DNA of 64,000 nt from an uncultured Planctomycetota bacterium (lineage in GTDB: Bacteria; Planctomycetota; Planctomycetia; Isosphaerales; Isosphaeraceae). The notes below the pieces were generated by a model. That model made no database searches. It was given only the letters and a program-made list of their open reading frames with translations, and was not told where the DNA came from. Where the stretch lies: NCBI GenBank assembly GCA_963823665.1, contig CAWGMQ010000008.1:1824001-1888000 (forward strand), read 5' to 3'. Shown piece by piece: positions 1 through 8,965 of the stretch. How positions within the stretch are numbered: position 1 is the stretch's first letter; each line of letters starts with the position of its first letter. The position numbers were made by a program, and so were the translations under genes.

Positions 1-648
1 GTACATCCAGGCCACGAGCCGGGTTGGTCGAAAACACCCTGGCTTGGTTTTCACCGTGTACAACTGGACCAGGCCGCGGGACCTTTCGCACTACGAACGG
101 TTCGAGCACTACCATGCGACGTTTTACAATCACGTGGAGGCGCTGTCCGTGACGCCGTTTGCGCCGGGGCGCTGAGCCGGGGGCTGACGGCGCTTCTGGT
201 CTCGTGCATCCGGTTGCAGGGGACGGAGTTCAACGCCAACAAGAGGGCGAGCAAGATCGACCGGAACCATCCATACGTCAAGGAGGCGATCAAGACGATC
301 GTGCGGCGGGCAGAGCTGGTGGGAAGCGGCGACGGGGACGAGTCGTTTGTAGCGAACCTCAAGACCGAATTGAACGAGCGGCTTGACCAGTGGCTGGCCG
401 AATCGCAGAAGACGGCGGGCGGGCGCGTGCTTGGCTATGACGAGGAGCGCGACGGGATCACCGTGGGGCTGCTCCACCGGCCGGGGCTCGAGCCCTGGGA
501 TGATTTCACGTGCCTGAACTCGCTGCGCGATGTTGAGCCGAACGTGGGATTGATCCTGCATGACGGCGGGCTCGACGCGGACCCGGGTTTCGTCGGCGAG
601 GCTCGCGATGACGAAGACGGAGAGAACGACGAGGAGGAAGCGGAATGA
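1..648 (+). CDS. drmA: DISARM helicase DrmA, C-terminal part (5' truncated by window; 1-bp frameshift near 168)
   Basis: Frame 2 from base 2 reads [38 protein letters not shown]...[12 protein letters not shown] (SF2 helicase motif VI plus DrmA-type tail). Adding one G to the GGGG run near 168 joins it to ORF 214..648. Stop overlaps drmB start (ATGA). Confidence 0.88.
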
Positions 649-2609
649 CCGGGTCGTCTACGACAGAGCGGCGCAAGATCGGCGACATCCGGCCGAACCA
701 GTTGCTGTTCACGGGCGGTGTGGGGGCGATTGTCGAGCTGCCGAATCTGTCGGTGATGGTGATGGGTCTTGATGATTGGCCCGTTGATCAGGGTGTGGCG
801 GAGATCAGCGAGCCGCGACTGCTCAAGGCTGTGCAGTATGAGCTTGGTCCGCAGGTTGCGAAGCTGCTCACGCCGCCGGTTGCGAACGAGTCGGTGGGTG
901 TCGCGGCGAGCCCGTTTGATGATACGGCGAACCTGGGCGTTCCGGTGGCGCCGTTTCCGCGCTGGCAGGTTTGCCCGCACTGCCGGCTGCTGGCGCCGAT
1001 CCAGTCGGGTCTGTTCGAGCTGCGGCTGGACCCTTATCGCAAGGACCGGAGCCGGTATGTGCATCGCAACTGCCACAAGAAGGGGAAGCCTCCGTCGGTC
1101 GTGCCTGCCCGGTTCCTCGTGGCGTGTGAGCGCGGGCACCTGGATGATTTTCCGTGGGTGGAGTTTGTCCATCGTGGGCATACTGATTGCCGCTATGAAC
1201 TGCGGCTCTACGAGCTAGGTGCCTCGGGAGAGGTGGCCGATGTCCAGGTGGAATGTGTTCGGTGCGAGCAACGGCGGCGAATGAGCGATGCGTTCAGCGA
1301 GGAGGGGCGACTTGAGCTGCAACGATGCCGAGGCCGATGGCCGCATCTGCGAAAATACGACGAGGCCCCTTGCGAGGGAACTCAACGAGCGATTCTCTCG
1401 GGCGCGTCGAATAGCTGGTTCCCGATCTTGCTGACGGTGCTGTACATTCCAAGCACGCCCGACAGGCTGAGCCAGCAGATCGAATTGAACTGGGCGGAGC
1501 TGGAGGAATGCGAATCGGCGCGGGATATCAAGCTCAAGCGGAAATTGCTCAAGGGGCTGGCGACGTTCTCCGAGGAGCAGATCTGGGAGGCGGTCGTCAA
1601 ACGGAAAGCGGGGACCGACGACGGGGCTGTAGAAGTGCCCGATTTGCGCGAGCCGGAATGGGCGGTGTTCTCGAACCCTGACCCGAATTTGAATAGCCGG
1701 GATTTCAAGTTGCGGGTCGTCGAGCCGCCGGCTGCGTACAAGAAGGTGATCAGCAAGGTGGTGCTGGCGGAGCGGTTGCGGGAAGTGCGGGCGCTCGTCG
1801 GGTTTACTCGAATCGAGTCGCCCGGCGACTATACGGACATCGGCGATTTTCCGAGGGACCAGCGGGTGTCGCTCAGCCGGTCCGCGCCCAAGTGGGTGCC
1901 GACGTGCGAAGTGCGTGGCGAAGGGATTTTCCTGCAGTTTTCCGAGCAGGCGATTGGGGAGTGGATCAAGGAGACAAGGGAGCGCGAGGCCGAGTTTTTC
2001 GAGGGGCACCGGAGGTGGCGGCAGAAACGGGGACTGGAGCCCGACGATGGGTTTCCGACGATGCGGTACGTTCTGCTGCATTCGCTGGCACATGCCTTGA
2101 TCCGGCAGTTTGCGATCGAGTGTGGGTATACGACGGCGAGCATTCGCGAGAGGATTTACTCGCAGGCCCCGGGGGGCGATGCGGAGCCGATGCCGGGAAT
2201 TTTGCTCTATACCGCCGCGCCGGACAGCGAGGGGACGCTTGGCGGCCTGGTGGCGCTGGGTGGGCCGAAGGTCTTGGGGCGGCATCTGGATCAGGCGCTG
2301 GACTCGATGCGGCTGTGCGCGTCGGATCCTCTCTGCGCCGAGCATCGCCCGATGAAGGATGGGCTGACCTTGCATGGCGCGGCGTGTCATGCGTGCCTGT
2401 TCCTGCCAGAGACGAGCTGCGAGCGCGGCAACAAGTATCTGGACCGGAGTGTGCTAGTCTCGACCGTCGAGTCGGACGGCTTGGCCTTTTTCACTGAATC
2501 TTCCGAGCCGCTTCCGAAGGCAACGATCATTGCGCACACGGATGAGCTGATCACGCCGCCGAAGCCGATCGAGGTGGGTGTCACCGAAGGCGATGAGCCG
2601 GGAGAGTGA
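645..2609 (+). CDS. drmB: DISARM DrmB, DUF1998 domain protein
   Basis: 654 aa; HSLAHALIR-ECGY-ASIRERIY, ILLYTAAPDSEGTLGGL, and Cys cluster CASDPLC...ACHAC...ETSCERGN-LDR typical of DUF1998/DrmB; lies between helicase and PLD genes. Confidence 0.92.
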   Translation: MTGSSTTERRKIGDIRPNQLLFTGGVGAIVELPNLSVMVMGLDDWPVDQGVAEISEPRLLKAVQYELGPQVAKLLTPPVANESVGVAASPFDDTANLGVPVAPFPRWQVCPHCRLLAPIQSGLFELRLDPYRKDRSRYVHRNCHKKGKPPSVVPARFLVACERGHLDDFPWVEFVHRGHTDCRYELRLYELGASGEVADVQVECVRCEQRRRMSDAFSEEGRLELQRCRGRWPHLRKYDEAPCEGTQRAILSGASNSWFPILLTVLYIPSTPDRLSQQIELNWAELEECESARDIKLKRKLLKGLATFSEEQIWEAVVKRKAGTDDGAVEVPDLREPEWAVFSNPDPNLNSRDFKLRVVEPPAAYKKVISKVVLAERLREVRALVGFTRIESPGDYTDIGDFPRDQRVSLSRSAPKWVPTCEVRGEGIFLQFSEQAIGEWIKETREREAEFFEGHRRWRQKRGLEPDDGFPTMRYVLLHSLAHALIRQFAIECGYTTASIRERIYSQAPGGDAEPMPGILLYTAAPDSEGTLGGLVALGGPKVLGRHLDQALDSMRLCASDPLCAEHRPMKDGLTLHGAACHACLFLPETSCERGNKYLDRSVLVSTVESDGLAFFTESSEPLPKATIIAHTDELITPPKPIEVGVTEGDEPGE

Positions 2610-3415
2610 CGATGTCGAACGGGCTTTCCCTGGTCGCCGGGCGTGCGGTCACGCTCGTCAAGAGTTTGCCGATGGGCCTGGTCGAGACGCTTGTGGCGCG
2701 GCTGGAAATTGGTGATGCTCAGGATCGGAAAACGCTGAGCGAGCGGGTTCTGCTGGCAATTCCCGGAGCTCATCAGCGGGAACTCGTCGGCGATTTCTTT
2801 CGGGAGTGGAGGACCCACGCAGCTGAAGTGAATCCGTCTTCGGTTGCCGCCGCGCTGCTCACCGCATCTTTGGCGAACGACAACAGGCGCGAGGAAGAGT
2901 CTCTTGAGTTGGTCTGGACGGGGCCGGATGCGGATGCGGGCCCGATCCGGAGGACCGAGCAGGTGATTCTGGAGGTCATCGATTCGGCCAGCCAGCGGGC
3001 GACGATTGTGAGTTACGCAGTGTATTCGATCCCTCATATTTGTGGATCGCTTGTGCGCGCGGCGGGCCGTGGCGTTCGGATCAATGTGATCGTCGAGACG
3101 CCGGACAAGCTCGAGGGCAGGAACGAGTACAGCACGCTTCGAGCGCTCGGTGCCGAAGTGGCGGATTGTTCGACCGTCTATTACTGGCCGAAGCAGAATC
3201 GTGGGGTCGATCGGAATGGCAAGCTCGGAAGCCTGCATGTCAAGTGCGTGGCCGCCGACGGTCGATGGCTGTTCCTCTCGTCGGCTAATCTGACCGACTA
3301 TGCGTTTTCGATCAACATGGAGCTGGGATTGCTGGCGCGGGGTGGGGACTTGCCCGGGAGGGTTGAGAAGCATTTCGACCGGCTGATCGAGCGCGGGGTG
3401 CTGGCGAAGCTGTGA
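2606..3415 (+). CDS. drmC: DISARM phospholipase D-family nuclease DrmC
   Basis: 269 aa; ELVWTGP motif and a single HKD motif (LHVKCVAAD...SSANLT...NMELG); start overlaps drmB stop. Confidence 0.9.
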   Translation: MTMSNGLSLVAGRAVTLVKSLPMGLVETLVARLEIGDAQDRKTLSERVLLAIPGAHQRELVGDFFREWRTHAAEVNPSSVAAALLTASLANDNRREEESLELVWTGPDADAGPIRRTEQVILEVIDSASQRATIVSYAVYSIPHICGSLVRAAGRGVRINVIVETPDKLEGRNEYSTLRALGAEVADCSTVYYWPKQNRGVDRNGKLGSLHVKCVAADGRWLFLSSANLTDYAFSINMELGLLARGGDLPGRVEKHFDRLIERGVLAKL

Positions 3416-3695
3416 AATGAATTCGTTCCCTTAATCGTTGCAGGGTAAGGGCGCGCGACGGATTTACAAAGCGAACGGTGATGTCTAAAGGGGGGGTCAC
3501 CTAGCCCCATGAAAGTGCGCGAATGCACGATCCAGCCGCGGGAGCTCAATTTTCAGAGTAACTTGCCCTAACATTAGGACGGAGGGCGGAGGGCCGAGGA
3601 ATCTCACTCGAAATGGACGAATTCCACACCTTCGGCGTAAACGGATCAGGGGTTTTGTAAAGCGTGTGTGCGAATTGCGGTCGTGTTCGGAGGGT

Positions 3696-3756
3696 CCCTC
3701 ACCCCGGCGGTCTCCCGGAGGGGCCCTCACCCTGGCCCTCTCCCAACGGGAGAGGG
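3696..3756. repeat. Tandem pair of CCCTCACCC...CCCTCTCCC-N3-GGGAGAGGG REP-like palindromes (first copy degenerate)
   Basis: Perfect 9-bp stem ccctctccc-aac-gggagaggg at 3736-3756; ccctcaccc leader present at both 3696 and 3724. Confidence 0.75.
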
Positions 3757-3827
3757 TGCGGTTGGTCGTCGCCGGATTCCTCAACAGGTCTTGGATTTTG
3801 TGGCACGTTGGATTCGCAGACACGCTC

Positions 3828-4115
3828 TCAGGAATTTCGGCGGTCTCGCCTCATTTCGTTTGCCATCGCGTACTCCGCCGCAAGGTCGAATCCAATGTCG
3901 GCGGTTGGATCGGTGATTTTGAACGCCGCGTACATCAGGCAGACCATGTGCAAGCCGCTGAAATGCCCCGGCAGGGTGCGGAGCTGGTATTTCTGAGTGG
4001 AGTCGTTGACGTCGAAGCCCTTCATTCCCAGCGTTGCGACCTCCACGTGAACAGGACAGCCCGTCAGGGATTCGACTTCTTCCACAGTTCGCTTGACGGC
4101 GGTCTGTAGGTCCAT
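3828..4115 (-). pseudogene. 95-aa ORF, probable internally deleted remnant of a larger conserved (TPR-associated) protein
   Basis: The C-terminal 70 aa (EVATLGMKGFDVND...KYQLRTLPGHFSGLHMVCLMYAAF...DIGFDLAAEY) recall the C-terminal domain of a larger family; the first 24 aa recall that family's N-terminus. Recognised from memory only. Confidence 0.5.
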
Positions 4116-4282
4116 CTTGCTATTATCGCCGGCGTACCGGCTTTTTCCCAGACTGGGCTATGAACGGGGCGGGCTTCGTCGGCTCTAACTTGGATTGTGC
4201 GATTTCGTTGCGGCGGGTCGTCGTCGAGGTTGTCGTCGCCCGCGATTAATCGGGGGACGGGGCTGGAGCGGTGGTGGTTCGA

Positions 4283-4365
4283 GCGGATCACTGGCGGGTG
4301 ACGCCCTTCACCCCCCCTGGGCCCCCCTTTGCAAGGGGGGGGAAAGGGACGGGCGGGGCTTTCTT
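4283..4365 (+). repeat. Left copy of an ~83-bp direct repeat containing a poly-C/poly-G hairpin
   Basis: 4283-4320 matches 6883-6920 at 36/38 nt; 4315-4365 closely matches 7118-7166; internal hairpin cccccctt-tgc-aagggggg. Confidence 0.85.
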
Positions 4366-4583
4366 TTGCCGGCTTCTTAGCCGCGGCGCGCGCAAATTCG
4401 CAGGTTCGATCGAATTGGTCGTTGCATGCGTTGCGACGTGAAAAAAATTCCAGGTTTTCTGGTCGACGAAATGGCTAAATCCGGGAAACCCGTCGCATAT
4501 TATCTGTAGCTCAAAGTCGATTGCCGACACTGGTGTCGGCGCGATGGGCACCCACGTCTCTACATCCGAGAATTGACACTGAT

Positions 4584-6860
4584 ATGGCCTCTGATGCACA
4601 AATCAATGCGAACCGGCGCAATGCGTTACGCTCGACCGGGCCTAAAACTCCGGAATCCCGGGCGAAAAGCGCTCGCAATAGTCGGAAGCACGGTATTCGG
4701 TCGGAGCGGGAGAAGCTCGCGCGGGAGGAAAGCATCGCGTATGAAGCGCGATACTTTCGCTGGTCCGCGCATTATGGGGTGGAGAGTGACCCCGAGGAGT
4801 TTCTATTAAATGCCAACCTGTTCCTGGCGTCCGACATGGATCGGGTGAGGGGTGCCTACCTGGAACTCACTCAAAGCCAGATCGACAATGCCGAGGACGA
4901 CGAGATCAAAGAGGTGCGCGAGACGGGCGACTTGCTGTTCACCGATTCACGAGGCGTGCCGGTTTCGTTGTATGGCACCCGTCGGTTTAACAACAAGAAA
5001 CCAGGGGGACCGTCATGGGGTAGCGAAACTGCGCCGGCGATCAAGCCCGACGAACTCATGCGCAAACTGGAATCGAGCGCGATGGGGTGCTACTGGATCC
5101 TTGAGGTTCTTGAGGAACTGCTGGAACGGGCTCGCAAACGTTTTTGGTCCTCCGGCGATCGGCTGATGATGCTACGGTTGCTGGGGCGGCATCCTGTCGA
5201 TGGCCCCACAGACCGGCGGGTCGCTGAGGTTTTCGCGGCGAGCCACGCGCTTCGGCCGATGGGCAAGCCGTTTGACGATCTGCTCAGCGATATGAACGAG
5301 CTGATGCTCGAGGCCCACGTGAAGGCGGTCGTGGCGTTGTGGCCTGACCTATCGCAGCGCGGTGAAAAGGAGAAGGCCAGGCAGAGCCTGATCGAGCTGG
5401 TGGAGGGCGAGATCGAGCGGGTGTGGGCCATTGCGGCGGAACATGACACCCATATCAAGGATGAACCTGCGCGGACGAGGCGACGCAAGGGATTTGTTTA
5501 TACCAAGGAAGCTGAGGCGATGCGGCGATGGTTCGCGCGCGCCAAGGGGTCGGTGGAGCGAGGGGGCAAGGTAATTCGGCAGGAGGTACGGGCGCGGAAG
5601 GCGGATAACCATGCGGAGACTTTGCCGCCGGTGCCTGGGAAAGATGTTAGCCCGTATGATGGGCGGCCGGCGGCCTGGTGGGCGGAGAGTGTGGGTGGCG
5701 GGAAGAAGGGAGACCTGCGGTCGCGGGGAGGGCGGGGTCAGGAGAACCCGCGCCCAACACGGCGGGCCGGGGCGGGATGTGGAGACTCGCGACCAACATG
5801 GTGAGACCCGCGCCCAACATGTTGACGGAGGGACGGGGCGGGAGAGTGGCGATCAGCTCGCTGAGTTTGGGGGGACGGGAGACCTGCGGTCGGGTGGAGG
5901 GCGGCGACCCTTCGGGTGCCTGGAGACCCGCGCCCAACACGCGGATGGGGAGGCGGATTCGGGTGAGTGTGGGAGCGGCGGGCCACTCGCTGATGGTGGT
6001 TCGGGCGCGGCGGTTGAGATTGGCCGTGAGGCTTGGGCGGGCGGCACACGGAGTGTGCCTGCTACTCCAATTAGTGCGGACGGCACACGGAGTGTGCCTG
6101 CTACTTCGAATGAGAAGCGCCGCGGGTGGGATTCGGTCGTGGTGGAGGAATCGGACGTTCTGACGTGTGGGGGGTATCTTCCGGAGAAGTACGTTCGCGG
6201 TGAGGGCGATGGCGGCCGTGAGGAGGAGGCTCCGGCTGCGCTTGAGGACGGGGTTCCGACTGCGATTGAGGACGAGGCTCCGGCTGCGCTTGAGGACGAA
6301 GTGCCGAGTCTTGAAACCTTGGGTTCCGAATCTGAGGACGCCAAGCGAGTCGACATGGATCTGAATGCAGGAAGTGTGAGTGAAGTCACGCAGGAGGGGA
6401 TGGCGGAAACGGTTGATCGGCGCGGGAGGATGGGCGTGCCGCGGGCGGCGACGAGGGTCAAACCGGTGAAAAAGCGCCGAACGAAGCCAATTTGCGTGAT
6501 GACGTGTGCATAGCACAACCTCAAGAGATTATTGGTGTTCCGACGAATTCCGGTCGTGATTCGGGACTTGACGGTTGTCAAACGAAGCCAATTTTGCAAA
6601 CGAAGCCAATTCCGGCGGGCGGTGCGGAGATGGGCGCATCTGGAGGTTCGACTCAGCCGGTTCGACGGGCATTGACGGATAACGAGAAACGGGACGCGTG
6701 GAAGGAGAGAAGGCGGCGGGAGTGGATTCGTGCACGTGCGGAGAAGGCGGCGCGGGAGCGGGAGGGCTTGGCGAGGTTGAATGGGGGCGTAGCGAATCCT
6801 GGGACGACTTCGTCGCCAGCGGGGGAAGCCGTGCCGCCGCACGATGTGCGGGGGCCTTGA
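4584..6860 (+). CDS. Hypothetical protein of ~760 aa with N-terminal ANRRNA-xx-STGPKT...KHG motif and low-complexity repeat-derived tail; frameshifts near 5745 and 6425
   Basis: ORFs 4521..5804, 5611..6513 and 6492..6860 join if the extra A in ggagaAcccg (other repeat copies read ggagacccg) is removed and a second indel near 6425 is corrected, giving ...EKAPNEANLRDD...QTKPILQTKPI. Confidence 0.7.
5709..5940 (+). repeat. Intragenic repeat family GGAGACCTGCGGTCG...GGAGACCCGCGCCCAACAC: two full units and two half units
   Basis: Full units at 5709-5760 and 5878-5940; gagacYcgcgMccaaca half units at ~5782 and ~5803; translate as GDLRS...ETRAQH. Confidence 0.8.
6042..6105 (-). repeat. Two identical 25-nt GTAG-type REP palindromes, 39 bp apart, inside the CDS
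   Basis: cggcacacggagtgtgcctgctact at 6042-6066 and 6081-6105; minus strand reads GTAG-CA-GGCACAC-TCC-GTGTGCC. Confidence 0.85.
6226..6297 (+). repeat. 24-bp tandem repeat, three copies (EAPAALED/GVPTAIED/EAPAALED)
   Basis: gaggctccggctgcgcttgaggac occurs twice with a variant copy between. Confidence 0.8.
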
Positions 6861-6882
6861 TGTGGGATCTTGTGCGCGGCGG

Positions 6883-7166
6883 GCGGATCACTGGCGGGCG
6901 GCGCCCTTCACCCCCCCTGGCCCTGGGCGGATCAAAAGCGGGCCGTATTGGCGAATTTCGCCGTGGACGATTCGGCGTTTTCTGTTGCGCGGCGGTTTGG
7001 TGCTGGCGGCCGCCGGGACGGACCCCCCCTGGCCCCCCCTTCTTAAGGGGGGAAGCTTGGCGCAACATTCGCGGGGGGAAATCTCCGCTCCATACTCTGC
7101 AAGTTTTCAACAGGCCACCCTGGCCCCCCTTTGAGAGGGGGGGAAAGGGACGTGTGGGGCTTTCTT
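6883..7166 (+). repeat. Right copy of the direct repeat, split by ~200 bp that contain a further poly-C/poly-G hairpin (7022-7054)
   Basis: First half at 6883-6920 and second half at 7118-7166 match 4283-4365. Confidence 0.8.
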
Positions 7167-7259
7167 GATTGAGACGCGGCGGGGTATTCTCCAATAACTT
7201 CGGGCGTCGTGGAAACTTGAGGTTGGTCCAACGAGTGGGAGTATAGTAGACTTTTCCAC

Positions 7260-8965
7260 ATGAGATACCGCATGAACGGCGTAATGGTTGGTCGACTGCG
7301 GGAGCGGTGCGGCCGAATTTGGCTCGTCCTGGTTGTCGCTGGGCTGTTTCTGCTCGAGCCGACGGCTCGTGCGCAGAAGGCGGCGCGGAGCTCCGGGAAC
7401 GAGGCGGTGTCGCAGCGGGTTGAGGCGGTGCTCAGCACACCCGGGTATCAGAAGGGGCATTGGGGGGTTCTGGTCGTCGACCGCAAGACGGGCGAGGTGA
7501 TTTACGAACGAAACGCCGATCAGCTTTTCGCGCCGGCGTCGGTCACGAAGCTGTTCACTACGGCCGCCGCGCTCGTCGAGCTTGGGCCCGGGTACCGGTT
7601 CCAGACGCCCGTGGTGCGACACGGCGAGGTGGATGCGGCGGGCAAGCTGAACGGAGACTTGATTCTGGTGGCGTCGGGCGACCTGTGCATGGGCGGGCGC
7701 ACGGGTCCTGAGGGAGTGCTCCTGTTCAAGGACGAAGACCACACGTACTCCGGCGGTAATTTGAAGAGTGAAATCGTCGGGACCAATCCGCTTGCGGGAT
7801 TGGACCATCTGGCGCGCGAGGTGGAAGCCTCGGGAATCCGCGAGATTGCCGGCGATGTGATCGTGGATGACCGACTCTTCGCTCCGGCGCTTTCGAGCGG
7901 GAGCGGCCCTAGCCGGGTCAGCCCAATTCTGATCAACGACAACGTCATCGATGTTCTGGCGCGGCCGGCGGGCAAGGCAGGTGAGCCGGCAGTGGTCACG
8001 TTTCAGCCGGCGACACAGTTTGTTGCGGTCGACGCATTGGTGGAGACGGTTCCAGAAGGCAAGCCGGCGTCGCTCACGGTCGGGCGGATTGGTTCAGCGA
8101 AGTACGCGGTGCGCGGGCAGTTGCCTGTCGGGCACGGGCAAGTCGTCAAGATCGGCGAGATCGAGCAGCCAGCCTCGTTTGCCCGCGCGCTGTTCATCGA
8201 GGCGCTGCGGCGGCATCGAGTGCGGGTTACGGCGTCGCCGCTGGAGTCGAACAACACTGGCGGCCTGGCGGCGCGCGGCGACGTTCTCAAGCTGCCGAAG
8301 GTAGCCGAGTACACGTCGCCCCCGCTCAGCGAGTATGCGCGAGTGATCCTGAAGGTGAGCCACAATCTCCATGCCAGCACGCTGCCGCTTCTGATCGCCG
8401 CACATCATGGCGAGCGCACTCTCGAGGAGGGGTTGAAGCGCGAGGGGAAAATTCTCAAGGGCCTGGGACTGGAGCCGGGTACAGTCTCGTTCGGTGGCGG
8501 GGCCGGCGGGTCGCGATCGGATCTGGTCACTCCGAGGGCGACCGTCACGTTGTTGCGTGCGATGGCGACGCGACCGGAATTTGCGGCATTCGACCCGGCG
8601 CTGCCGGTGCTTGGCCGCGACGGGACCCTTGCCAAGTCGGTTGCAGCCGATAGCCCGTGCGCGGGCATGCGCACGCCAAGACCGGCACGTACTTCGTTGA
8701 GAACGAACTGGAGGGAACCACCGTGCTGACAAGCAAGGCGCTGGCGGGCTACCTTGAAACGGCATCCGGGCGATCGCTTGTGTTTGCCGCGTTCGTGAAC
8801 AACGTGCCGCTCGACGCACCGAAGCCCACGAAGTCGGTTTCCGACGCGACAGCGGAGGCCGGCCGATTGCTGGGCAAGCTGTGCGAGGCCCTTTACACGG
8901 ATTCAGGCGACCGAGCTGGGGAGCCGAAGGACAAACGAGCCGCGATCAGTGGTGCAGGTCGCTAA
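7260..8965 (+). CDS. dacB: D-alanyl-D-alanine carboxypeptidase/endopeptidase (PBP4, peptidase S13); frameshift near 8657
   Basis: Signal peptide; SxxK (PASVTKL) and SxN (KVSHN) in ORF 7260..8729; KTG (HAKTGT) in overlapping ORF 8657..8965; one missing G restores DSPVRGHAHAKTG. Confidence 0.88.

Follow-up and report, generated by a model that had tools for sequence, protein, structure and literature searches.

A gene at positions 4584 to 6860 (forward strand) of a 64,000-nt stretch from an uncultured planctomycete of the Isosphaeraceae (assembly GCA_963823665.1, contig CAWGMQ010000008.1, positions 1,824,001 to 1,888,000; hereafter the window) is one of about 48 copies that occupy fixed borders in its genome, with core genes on the 3' side and variable accessory DNA on the 5' side. 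The copies form a family whose members share sites between species, are mosaics of one another and are kept by purifying selection. They carry in their 3' tails a motif, AACRAASCCA, that recurs across phyla, and begin with an STGP..KHG module also found in phage proteins at the small-terminase position. Across phyla this description is suggestive, and for two genomes it is firm. An original prediction, made from the letters of the window, had taken the gene and the direct repeats around it for a one-gene mobile cassette.

The genome that holds the window is referred to as G000 (16.5 Mb) and that of its sister species as G001. L-numbers denote single loci studied, among them 48 family loci in G000 and 35 in G001, and genome-wide statements for G000 are based on sequence searches and retrieved stretches.

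Fixed sites with one variable side

At 20 of the 48 loci in G000, the flank directly 3' of the gene is common with that of one of the 35 family loci in G001. This synteny begins about 50-350 nt beyond the stop codon, often at the promoter of the core gene. Synteny on the 5' side was found at 3 of those 20 sites only (3-6 kb seen), and then with different DNA in between. Four further matches connect the 5' flank of one site to the 5' flank of another, suggesting rearrangement at the copies.

The polarity is also seen in a test that needs no annotation. GC content is higher 3' than 5' of the gene at 37 of 48 loci in G000, 32 of 35 in G001, 25 of 33 other long forms and 17 of 24 short forms of other phyla, and cover by long open reading frames (ORFs) favors the 3' side by 43 vs 5, 28 vs 7, 24 vs 8 and 19 vs 3 loci, respectively. 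The same test applied to 92 control genes gave no polarity.

The gene content of the two sides agrees with this picture. Among the genes nearest upstream, 17 of 47 loci have one for a transposase, a group II intron, a toxin-antitoxin system or SIR2 (100 proteins, E<=1e-5), and the downstream proteins scanned (47 of the 85 listed, E<=1e-8) include no transposase or toxin-antitoxin toxin. Downstream genes include gyrA, tuf with tRNAs, groEL, selA, recQ, holB, mutM and nuoA/B. Upstream genes lie 146 in sense and 106 in antisense to the family gene, a tRNA or tmRNA stands at the border of 1 of 47 loci, and no terminase or capsid gene was found among the flanking proteins scanned. An NCBIfam scan of the neighbors of short forms was sparse, matching 5 of 35 upstream and 8 of 29 downstream proteins.

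At L103 (4860-5378) the copy ends just before a tRNA-Thr/Tyr/Gly/Thr-tuf operon in both species. The same insertion sequence, of DDE type and 431 aa, precedes L080, L092, L098, L100 and L102; it is on the opposite strand in every case and possibly has a target preference. An orientation set by the replichore was rejected by eye, copies 27 kb apart being found on opposite strands.

Exchange between copies

Among the 20 syntenic pairs of sites, one lacks a long piece and two gave no alignment, leaving 17. In 15 of these the G000 copy is closer to a paralogue in G000 than to the G001 occupant of its own site, and in 4 of the 17 the two occupants belong to different subfamilies (23-30% identity). 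Copies group by genome in a quick tree (80 of 83 rows). The window copy changes its nearest neighbor block by block; it shows no difference from L064/L065 at nt 121-360, but 14-15 differences per 120 nt at nt 481-840. Five G001 copies have an identity of 0.98-1.00 in the conserved domain, which falls to 0.72 at -182 and to 0.33 at -318. Sharp ends, terminal repeats and target duplications were not found: 5' identity fades over about 300 nt and 3' junctions vary. Since the nearest paralogues lie within the same genome, the copies are block mosaics, and identity is lost gradually on the 5' side, the pattern is best read as the signature of ectopic gene conversion and not of cut-out transposition.

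In five G001 copies (L140-L144) the N-terminal domains are identical, whereas the tails, up to 1,300 aa long, consist of shuffled 126-510-nt repeats that differ among copies in number and order. L120 and L130, also in G001, hold the same 5'-truncated copy, beginning at codon 148 right after a short palindromic repeat, and each of these sites has a syntenic counterpart in G000 that is occupied by a full copy. In G000, L075 (C4:254500-255000) is an internally deleted copy that consists of the leader, 120 coding nt and the 3' end.

A conserved motif in the gene tail

AACGAASCCA is found three times in the tail of the window gene, at 6480, 6581 and 6599. Across the G000 and G001 loci the motif occurs 120 times in sense and once in antisense, in two reading frames, and 36 of 37 strict hits in G000 lie inside family tails. 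At 77 GTDB loci (of 80; three overlapping, already-used loci were dropped) there are 79 sense and 18 antisense occurrences downstream and 1 upstream, where 0.3 would be expected per strand. By frame, the GTDB hits number 38, 5 and 10 in frames 0, 1 and 2, with 26 beyond the stop codon. A relaxed form of the motif, scored in several phyla, is present in the 3' tail at 63 of 72 loci and upstream at 2 of 72. Phycisphaerae often have an inverted motif pair, and Acidobacteriota often an antisense copy only. The number of motifs tracks the number of copies across 41 genomes (rho 0.61; related genomes are not independent).

Because it is found in all three frames, on either strand and past the stop codon, AACRAASCCA is a DNA site and not a peptide. 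No consensus RNA structure was found for the motif module in an alignment of 12 rows, three of them out of register. When loci are divided by motif strand, polarity is 31 vs 6 with a sense motif and 4 vs 3 with antisense copies only.

Motifs also stand in tandem arrays inside coding tails, with periods of 36, 42 and 75 nt (L193, L194, L203). Twenty gene-less motif sites (L255-L274), some in tandem units (of 770 nt at L264), lie amid the same non-coding mosaics; hotspots outnumber genes.

Gene model and layout of the locus

The surroundings of the gene in the window, and the parts of the gene itself, are as follows.

1..3415, forward: DISARM-like drmA (3' end), drmB and drmC (PADLOC matches to DrmA/B/C); accessory cargo on the variable 5' side
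3424..3756, forward: non-coding mosaic of modules also present at other hotspot sites (BLAST to L165, L169 and L079)
3724-3756: CCCTCACCC-type hairpin that closes this mosaic (pattern search)
3828..4115, reverse: ORF of 95 aa, a small cargo gene with no family match (ORF list and family scans)
4048..4265, forward: module that recurs 5' of the distant-subfamily copy L025 (76% identity)
4283..4365, forward: left REP-like element (repetitive extragenic palindrome), an arm plus a G/C hairpin; a genome-wide repeat, 5' of the gene in this copy only
4364..4583, forward: leader module, in 7 of 15 close copies and also occurring without the gene
4584..4718, forward: N-terminal STGP..KHG module, common to phage proteins at the small-terminase position (hhalign); predicted DNA-binding arm
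4584..5600, forward: conserved all-helical domain of 339 aa under purifying selection, a patchwork of paralogue blocks (AlphaFold2 (AF2), dN/dS and block pattern; no family match)
5601..6860, forward: variable low-complexity tail made of REP-like and tandem repeats, ending DVRGP-stop
6478..6611, forward: cis-motif region with three direct copies (6480, 6581, 6599; spacing 101 and 18 nt) and no conserved RNA structure
6883..7166, forward: 3' REP cluster with an arm (6883-6920) and hairpins (7023-7052 and 7118-7166), the usual trailer of the subfamily
7193..8965, forward: start of the conserved core flank, comprising the promoter region of dacB and dacB itself (Peptidase_S13); syntenic in G001, with 83% identity

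The ORF that starts at 4584 lies in three pieces as assembled: frame 0 from 4584 to 5804, frame +1 to 6513, and frame 0 again from 6492 to 6860. Contigs built from short reads have one base fewer at 5745 (runs X1, X2, X3, X5, X6 and X7, not X4) and one extra base at 6418 (a single X1 contig, otherwise identical across 347 nt), so the two breaks are likely to be assembly errors. Because these indels are opposite and restore one frame, the gene is likely a single one of 758 aa with its stop at 6860, the position reconstructed in the original prediction. Intact paralogues are of comparable length, at 664-800 aa. dacB (7260-8965) is likewise split into two frames near 8657-8729, probably by another single-base assembly error. 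Two G000 contigs end within family copies (C7:1116200-1117272 and C8:2183000-2184492), and the family seems to break the assembly of this genome. The DISARM genes drmA, drmB and drmC are not syntenic with the G001 dacB locus and are absent from it.

The gene family

Searches with the window protein and with a profile gave 55 and 62 matches in G000 and 45 and 52 in G001. Beyond these two genomes, the window protein matched 19 of 24 from the Isosphaeraceae and none of 16 from outside it. A profile search returned 36,665 clusters at 50% identity, 1,082 of them at E<=1e-30, and shorter forms are found in Phycisphaerae, Pirellulales, Acidobacteriota, Ignavibacteriales and Deltaproteobacteria. There was no match among named phage genomes, and four plasmid records matched.

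The window protein has no Pfam match, and no fitting family was found in NCBIfam or PHROG for 24 members; one family member matched phrog_9231 weakly (E 0.004). No transposase family (DDE, HUH, serine, tyrosine or DEDD) was detected in the window protein with Pfam or in the 24 members with NCBIfam and PHROG. The gene had been recognized beforehand as a member of a multicopy, uncharacterized planctomycete family devoid of a recombinase motif; both points hold, as does the N-terminal peptide that had been quoted. Its likeness to HGGxSTG-domain proteins stands for the STGP..KHG module, which is the same, but not for family membership: with 150 of 378 candidates scored, the model NF041373 gave no match in G000 (E<=0.1), and it gave none among the 24 members. 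A catalytic tyrosine was considered and rejected, since the RYE position varies.

Structure prediction, which had been proposed as a check, gave an all-helical AF2 model of the 339-aa domain (pLDDT 94.5). Fold searches with this model and with a 187-aa insert domain (Foldseek against PDB and viral structures, and a wide VIA search) returned nothing above background; the best scores were to coiled coils (Z 9.1) and, for the insert domain, 5.3. Likeness to the HK97 small terminase (Z 7.9, root-mean-square deviation 3.5, 82 residues aligned) was set aside as within noise, and the best sequence match in PDB had an E of 0.12. The ratio of nonsynonymous to synonymous substitution (dN/dS) was 0.09-0.47 in 18 pairs, a range indicative of purifying selection.

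A module shared with phage proteins at the small-terminase position

Viral contigs contain 37 loci with family-like matches, many of which encode an STGP..KHG start directly before an ORF of 550-660 aa. Of 27 such next ORFs found, 21 were tested and 10 proved to be large terminases (match to phrog_2). Two of the small phage genes match small-terminase PHROGs, and one passes Pfam Terminase_4. Profile alignment with the family (hhalign, via the short forms) covers 43 columns with probability 99.25 and E 4.9e-20, and homology is limited to these 43 N-terminal residues. A scan of 5 proteins of the short form and 24 members of the long form found no Terminase_4 domain, and of 23 phage genes in terminase position just one has the motif nearby. 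The N-termini of small terminases bind DNA, and pac sites lie within terS genes. One group of such phage proteins (L290-L322) has, in addition to the STGP..KHG start, a cysteine-rich segment that is likely metal-binding, and most of them are unnamed in Pfam and PHROG.

Flanking repeats and the cassette model

The direct repeat that brackets the gene was found as first described: 4283-4320 and 6883-6920 are identical at 36 of 38 positions, 2600 bp apart, and the hairpin half (4323-4365) recurs within 7118-7166, at 7124-7166, with 84% identity. The association of gene and repeat is likewise upheld, an arm being present 3' of the stop codon in 9 of 15 close copies where about 0.0007 per kb would be expected. 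The repeat is not specific to this locus, and the flanking sequences are copies of a genome-wide REP-like element. With 40 of 112 candidates scored, BLAST gave at least 56 matches to it in G000. The arm has 24 exact and 37 near-exact copies there and the hairpin 65, mostly away from the gene; many solo arms and hairpins sit between ordinary core genes. The leaders and trailers of family copies are patchworks of exchangeable modules, nearly all on the sense strand of the gene. The 38-bp shared part does not fold by itself (z +2.45), the hairpin gave a sub-threshold match only in Rfam, and a scan for promoters and terminators stayed at chance level. The 11 Y1_Tnp genes of G000 (Y1/RAYT-type) carry a different repeat, with the hairpin near 1 of the 11. 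At L011/L280 (G000:C8:1768807-1769400) a Y1/RAYT-type gene adjoins a 50-nt remnant of the family 3' end together with an arm and a hairpin.

The original prediction had the gene inserting and excising as a unit through recombination between these palindromic repeats, with paralogues flanked on both sides, an empty site beside dacB in relatives and 2.6-kb circles. Apart from the direct repeats of the window copy, this model can draw on five loci (the window copy, L064, L067, L087 and L096) that have a hairpin alone within 650 nt upstream, a number above chance. However, the arm is 5' of the gene in 1 of 15 close copies, that of the window, and the dacB site of G001 is occupied by a 5'-truncated, different family copy (70% identical to the window copy, vs 83% for the flank). 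Three more distant genomes have no window-like DNA upstream of dacB, and a metagenome scan for the dacB junction gave no matches. At 7 sites occupied in one species only, there is no clean empty site in the other species, which has other accessory DNA and the same non-coding modules. Contigs of seven runs, at low cover, contain no precise empty-site or circle joint. Three read joints (7127>4340, 4341>6872 and 7054>4272) were considered as excision products and rejected: joints between repeats carry 13-32 foreign bases, and these have no unique flanks and match L064 or tandem hairpin-arm arrays. Because the arm is upstream in this copy only, the G001 site is occupied and the joints fit tandem REP arrays, the excising cassette is unsupported. 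With the repeats so abundant and mostly far from the gene, it is largely refuted and highly improbable. The arms and hairpins would instead be REP-like passengers of the hotspots, and the bracket in the window a by-product of exchange. The suggestion that the protein binds the repeat survives in part: it may well bind DNA, but the conserved cis element is AACRAASCCA in the tail, not the hairpin.

Possible mechanisms

We suggest, tentatively and at somewhat less than an even chance, that the family encodes a DNA-binding protein which, with its own cis site, anchors one-sided ectopic recombination carried out by host enzymes. The N-terminal module would bind DNA at AACRAASCCA in the tail of its own gene. 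Pairing or exposure of the bound sites would let host recombination (gene conversion of the RecA type, with no catalyst supplied by the family) begin in the gene or tail, run 5'-wards and stop in any shared module or raggedly. The outcome would be a swap of the gene together with its upstream cargo. A number of observations weigh against this proposal. No catalytic partner was found, subfamily C lacks the STGP half of the N-terminal module, and plain RecA conversion among repeats accounts for the mosaics without any role for a protein. Of 20 motif sites examined at a distance from known copies (19 in G001, 1 in G000), none has the gene; the motif thus spreads independently of the gene, which may ride along with the hotspots rather than organize them. 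Polarity is absent at loci with antisense motifs only (n=8, mostly Acidobacteriota) and at loci without the motif (n=5), and is perhaps not general; its loss with an antisense motif fits a site that sets direction, but is confounded with taxon. The upstream and downstream Pfam scans differ in cut-off and gene number, and the comparison within the genus is of two genomes, with 5' synteny judged within 3-6 kb.

Several of these points are expected if the genes are passive residents of hotspots, nucleoid-type or autoregulatory DNA binders whose motif is an operator or an independent repeat, with ordinary RecA homogenization between copies and polarity arising from selection to keep the neighboring core promoter. 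Gradual 5' decay with block mosaics, motifs and modules without the gene, solo arms and hairpins between core genes as for ordinary REPs, and purifying selection without a catalytic motif are all in keeping with this. It leaves unexplained why, in four data sets and irrespective of the neighbor's strand, nearly every site has its core 3' of the gene, why all modules are on the sense strand, and why different subfamilies replace each other at one site, and we regard it as rather doubtful. An orphan small terminase with a pac-like site, which recruits the large terminase of a helper phage for one-way packaging of the gene and its upstream cargo in the manner of phage-inducible chromosomal islands (PICIs), is unlikely. 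Its appeal is that the same N-terminal module occurs in phage genes directly before the large terminase (10 of 21 tested) and that a cis site located in the gene itself would be the counterpart of pac in terS. Passages of PMC6687093 and PMC12829572 describe one-way packaging from island pac or pseudo-pac sites and transfer of defense hotspots. The 43-residue homology, the absence of Terminase_4 from the short and long forms tested, the near absence of the motif from phage genes in terminase position and the lack of terminase or capsid genes among the scanned flanks stand against it, and homogenization within a genome requires ectopic recombination anyway. A non-autonomous element of the single-strand or rolling-circle type (similar to IS91/ISCR or RAYT), mobilized from a 3' origin by an HUH enzyme in trans, with read-through capturing upstream DNA and REP clusters as preferred targets, would account for the 3'-anchored, 5'-ragged geometry and the strict strand bias of the hairpin modules. 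The duplicated truncated copies (L120/L130), the 3'-end remnant beside a Y1 gene (L011/L280), the 11 Y1_Tnp genes and the sites occupied in one species only point the same way. We consider this quite unlikely: the 3' end is not sharp, with junctions anywhere from 50 to 350 nt beyond the stop codon, the repeat at the Y1 genes is a different one, the majority of sites are old and shared, and no HUH gene was found among the flanks scanned.

Comparison with known systems

The family shares parts with several known systems but does not qualify as an insertion sequence, an integron, a REP-RAYT system, an HGGxSTG protein or a small terminase. With phage small terminases (Terminase_4/P27-like, including HGGxSTG-bearing ones) and the terminase-pac pairs of PICIs it has in common the 43-residue module and long antiparallel helices. 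Unlike small terminases, it is chromosomal, reaches about 50 copies, has a long repeat-built tail and is not accompanied by a large terminase gene, and the phage genes lack its motif.

G/C hairpins in tens of extragenic copies, in tandem arrays and in intragenic tails resemble REPs and bacterial interspersed mosaic elements, and REPs in Planctomycetes and within ORFs are described in part of PMC3733652. A short palindrome with many extragenic copies is indeed present, but no cognate RAYT flanked by the same repeat; the repeats are one-stranded, form no inverted dimers, do not flank Y1 genes and accompany a non-HUH gene.

Integrons and one-ended ISCR/IS91 rolling-circle elements also have a gene at a fixed edge and gather cargo 5' of it. 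In contrast to these, there is no HUH or tyrosine-recombinase match (nor any IntI-type family match), no sharp end and no common orientation of the cargo. The rarity of tRNA or tmRNA borders is unlike a tRNA-integrating island. Hotspots for accessory genes, as treated in sections of PMC12829572 for defense genes, have a fixed core neighbor and variable content, here of toxin-antitoxin, insertion sequence and defense genes; unlike them, each edge in this case has a member of one protein family and an oriented cis motif, with occupants swapped from one site to another. The open-access literature, supplements excluded, gave no description of the family, its peptide or DNA motifs or its polarity, although closed papers or supplements could hold one; within the literature covered the family is undescribed.

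Significance

How foreign and defense genes build up at chromosomal hotspots that have no integrase is an open question. In two planctomycete genomes of 16 Mb and, as judged by composition, in other phyla, the family and its motif mark the edge of such hotspots with a constant orientation. It is possible, though doubtful, that a small-terminase DNA-binding module and its cis site were recruited as dozens of oriented chromosomal anchors that actively and directionally capture and shuffle defense and accessory genes, integron-like but integrase-free, by site-bridged recombination or hijacked phage packaging. The analysis offers three things to test, namely a protein, a site of 10-13 bp and a direction, and may bear on the growth and rearrangement of the largest soil bacterial genomes and on the breaks in their assemblies.

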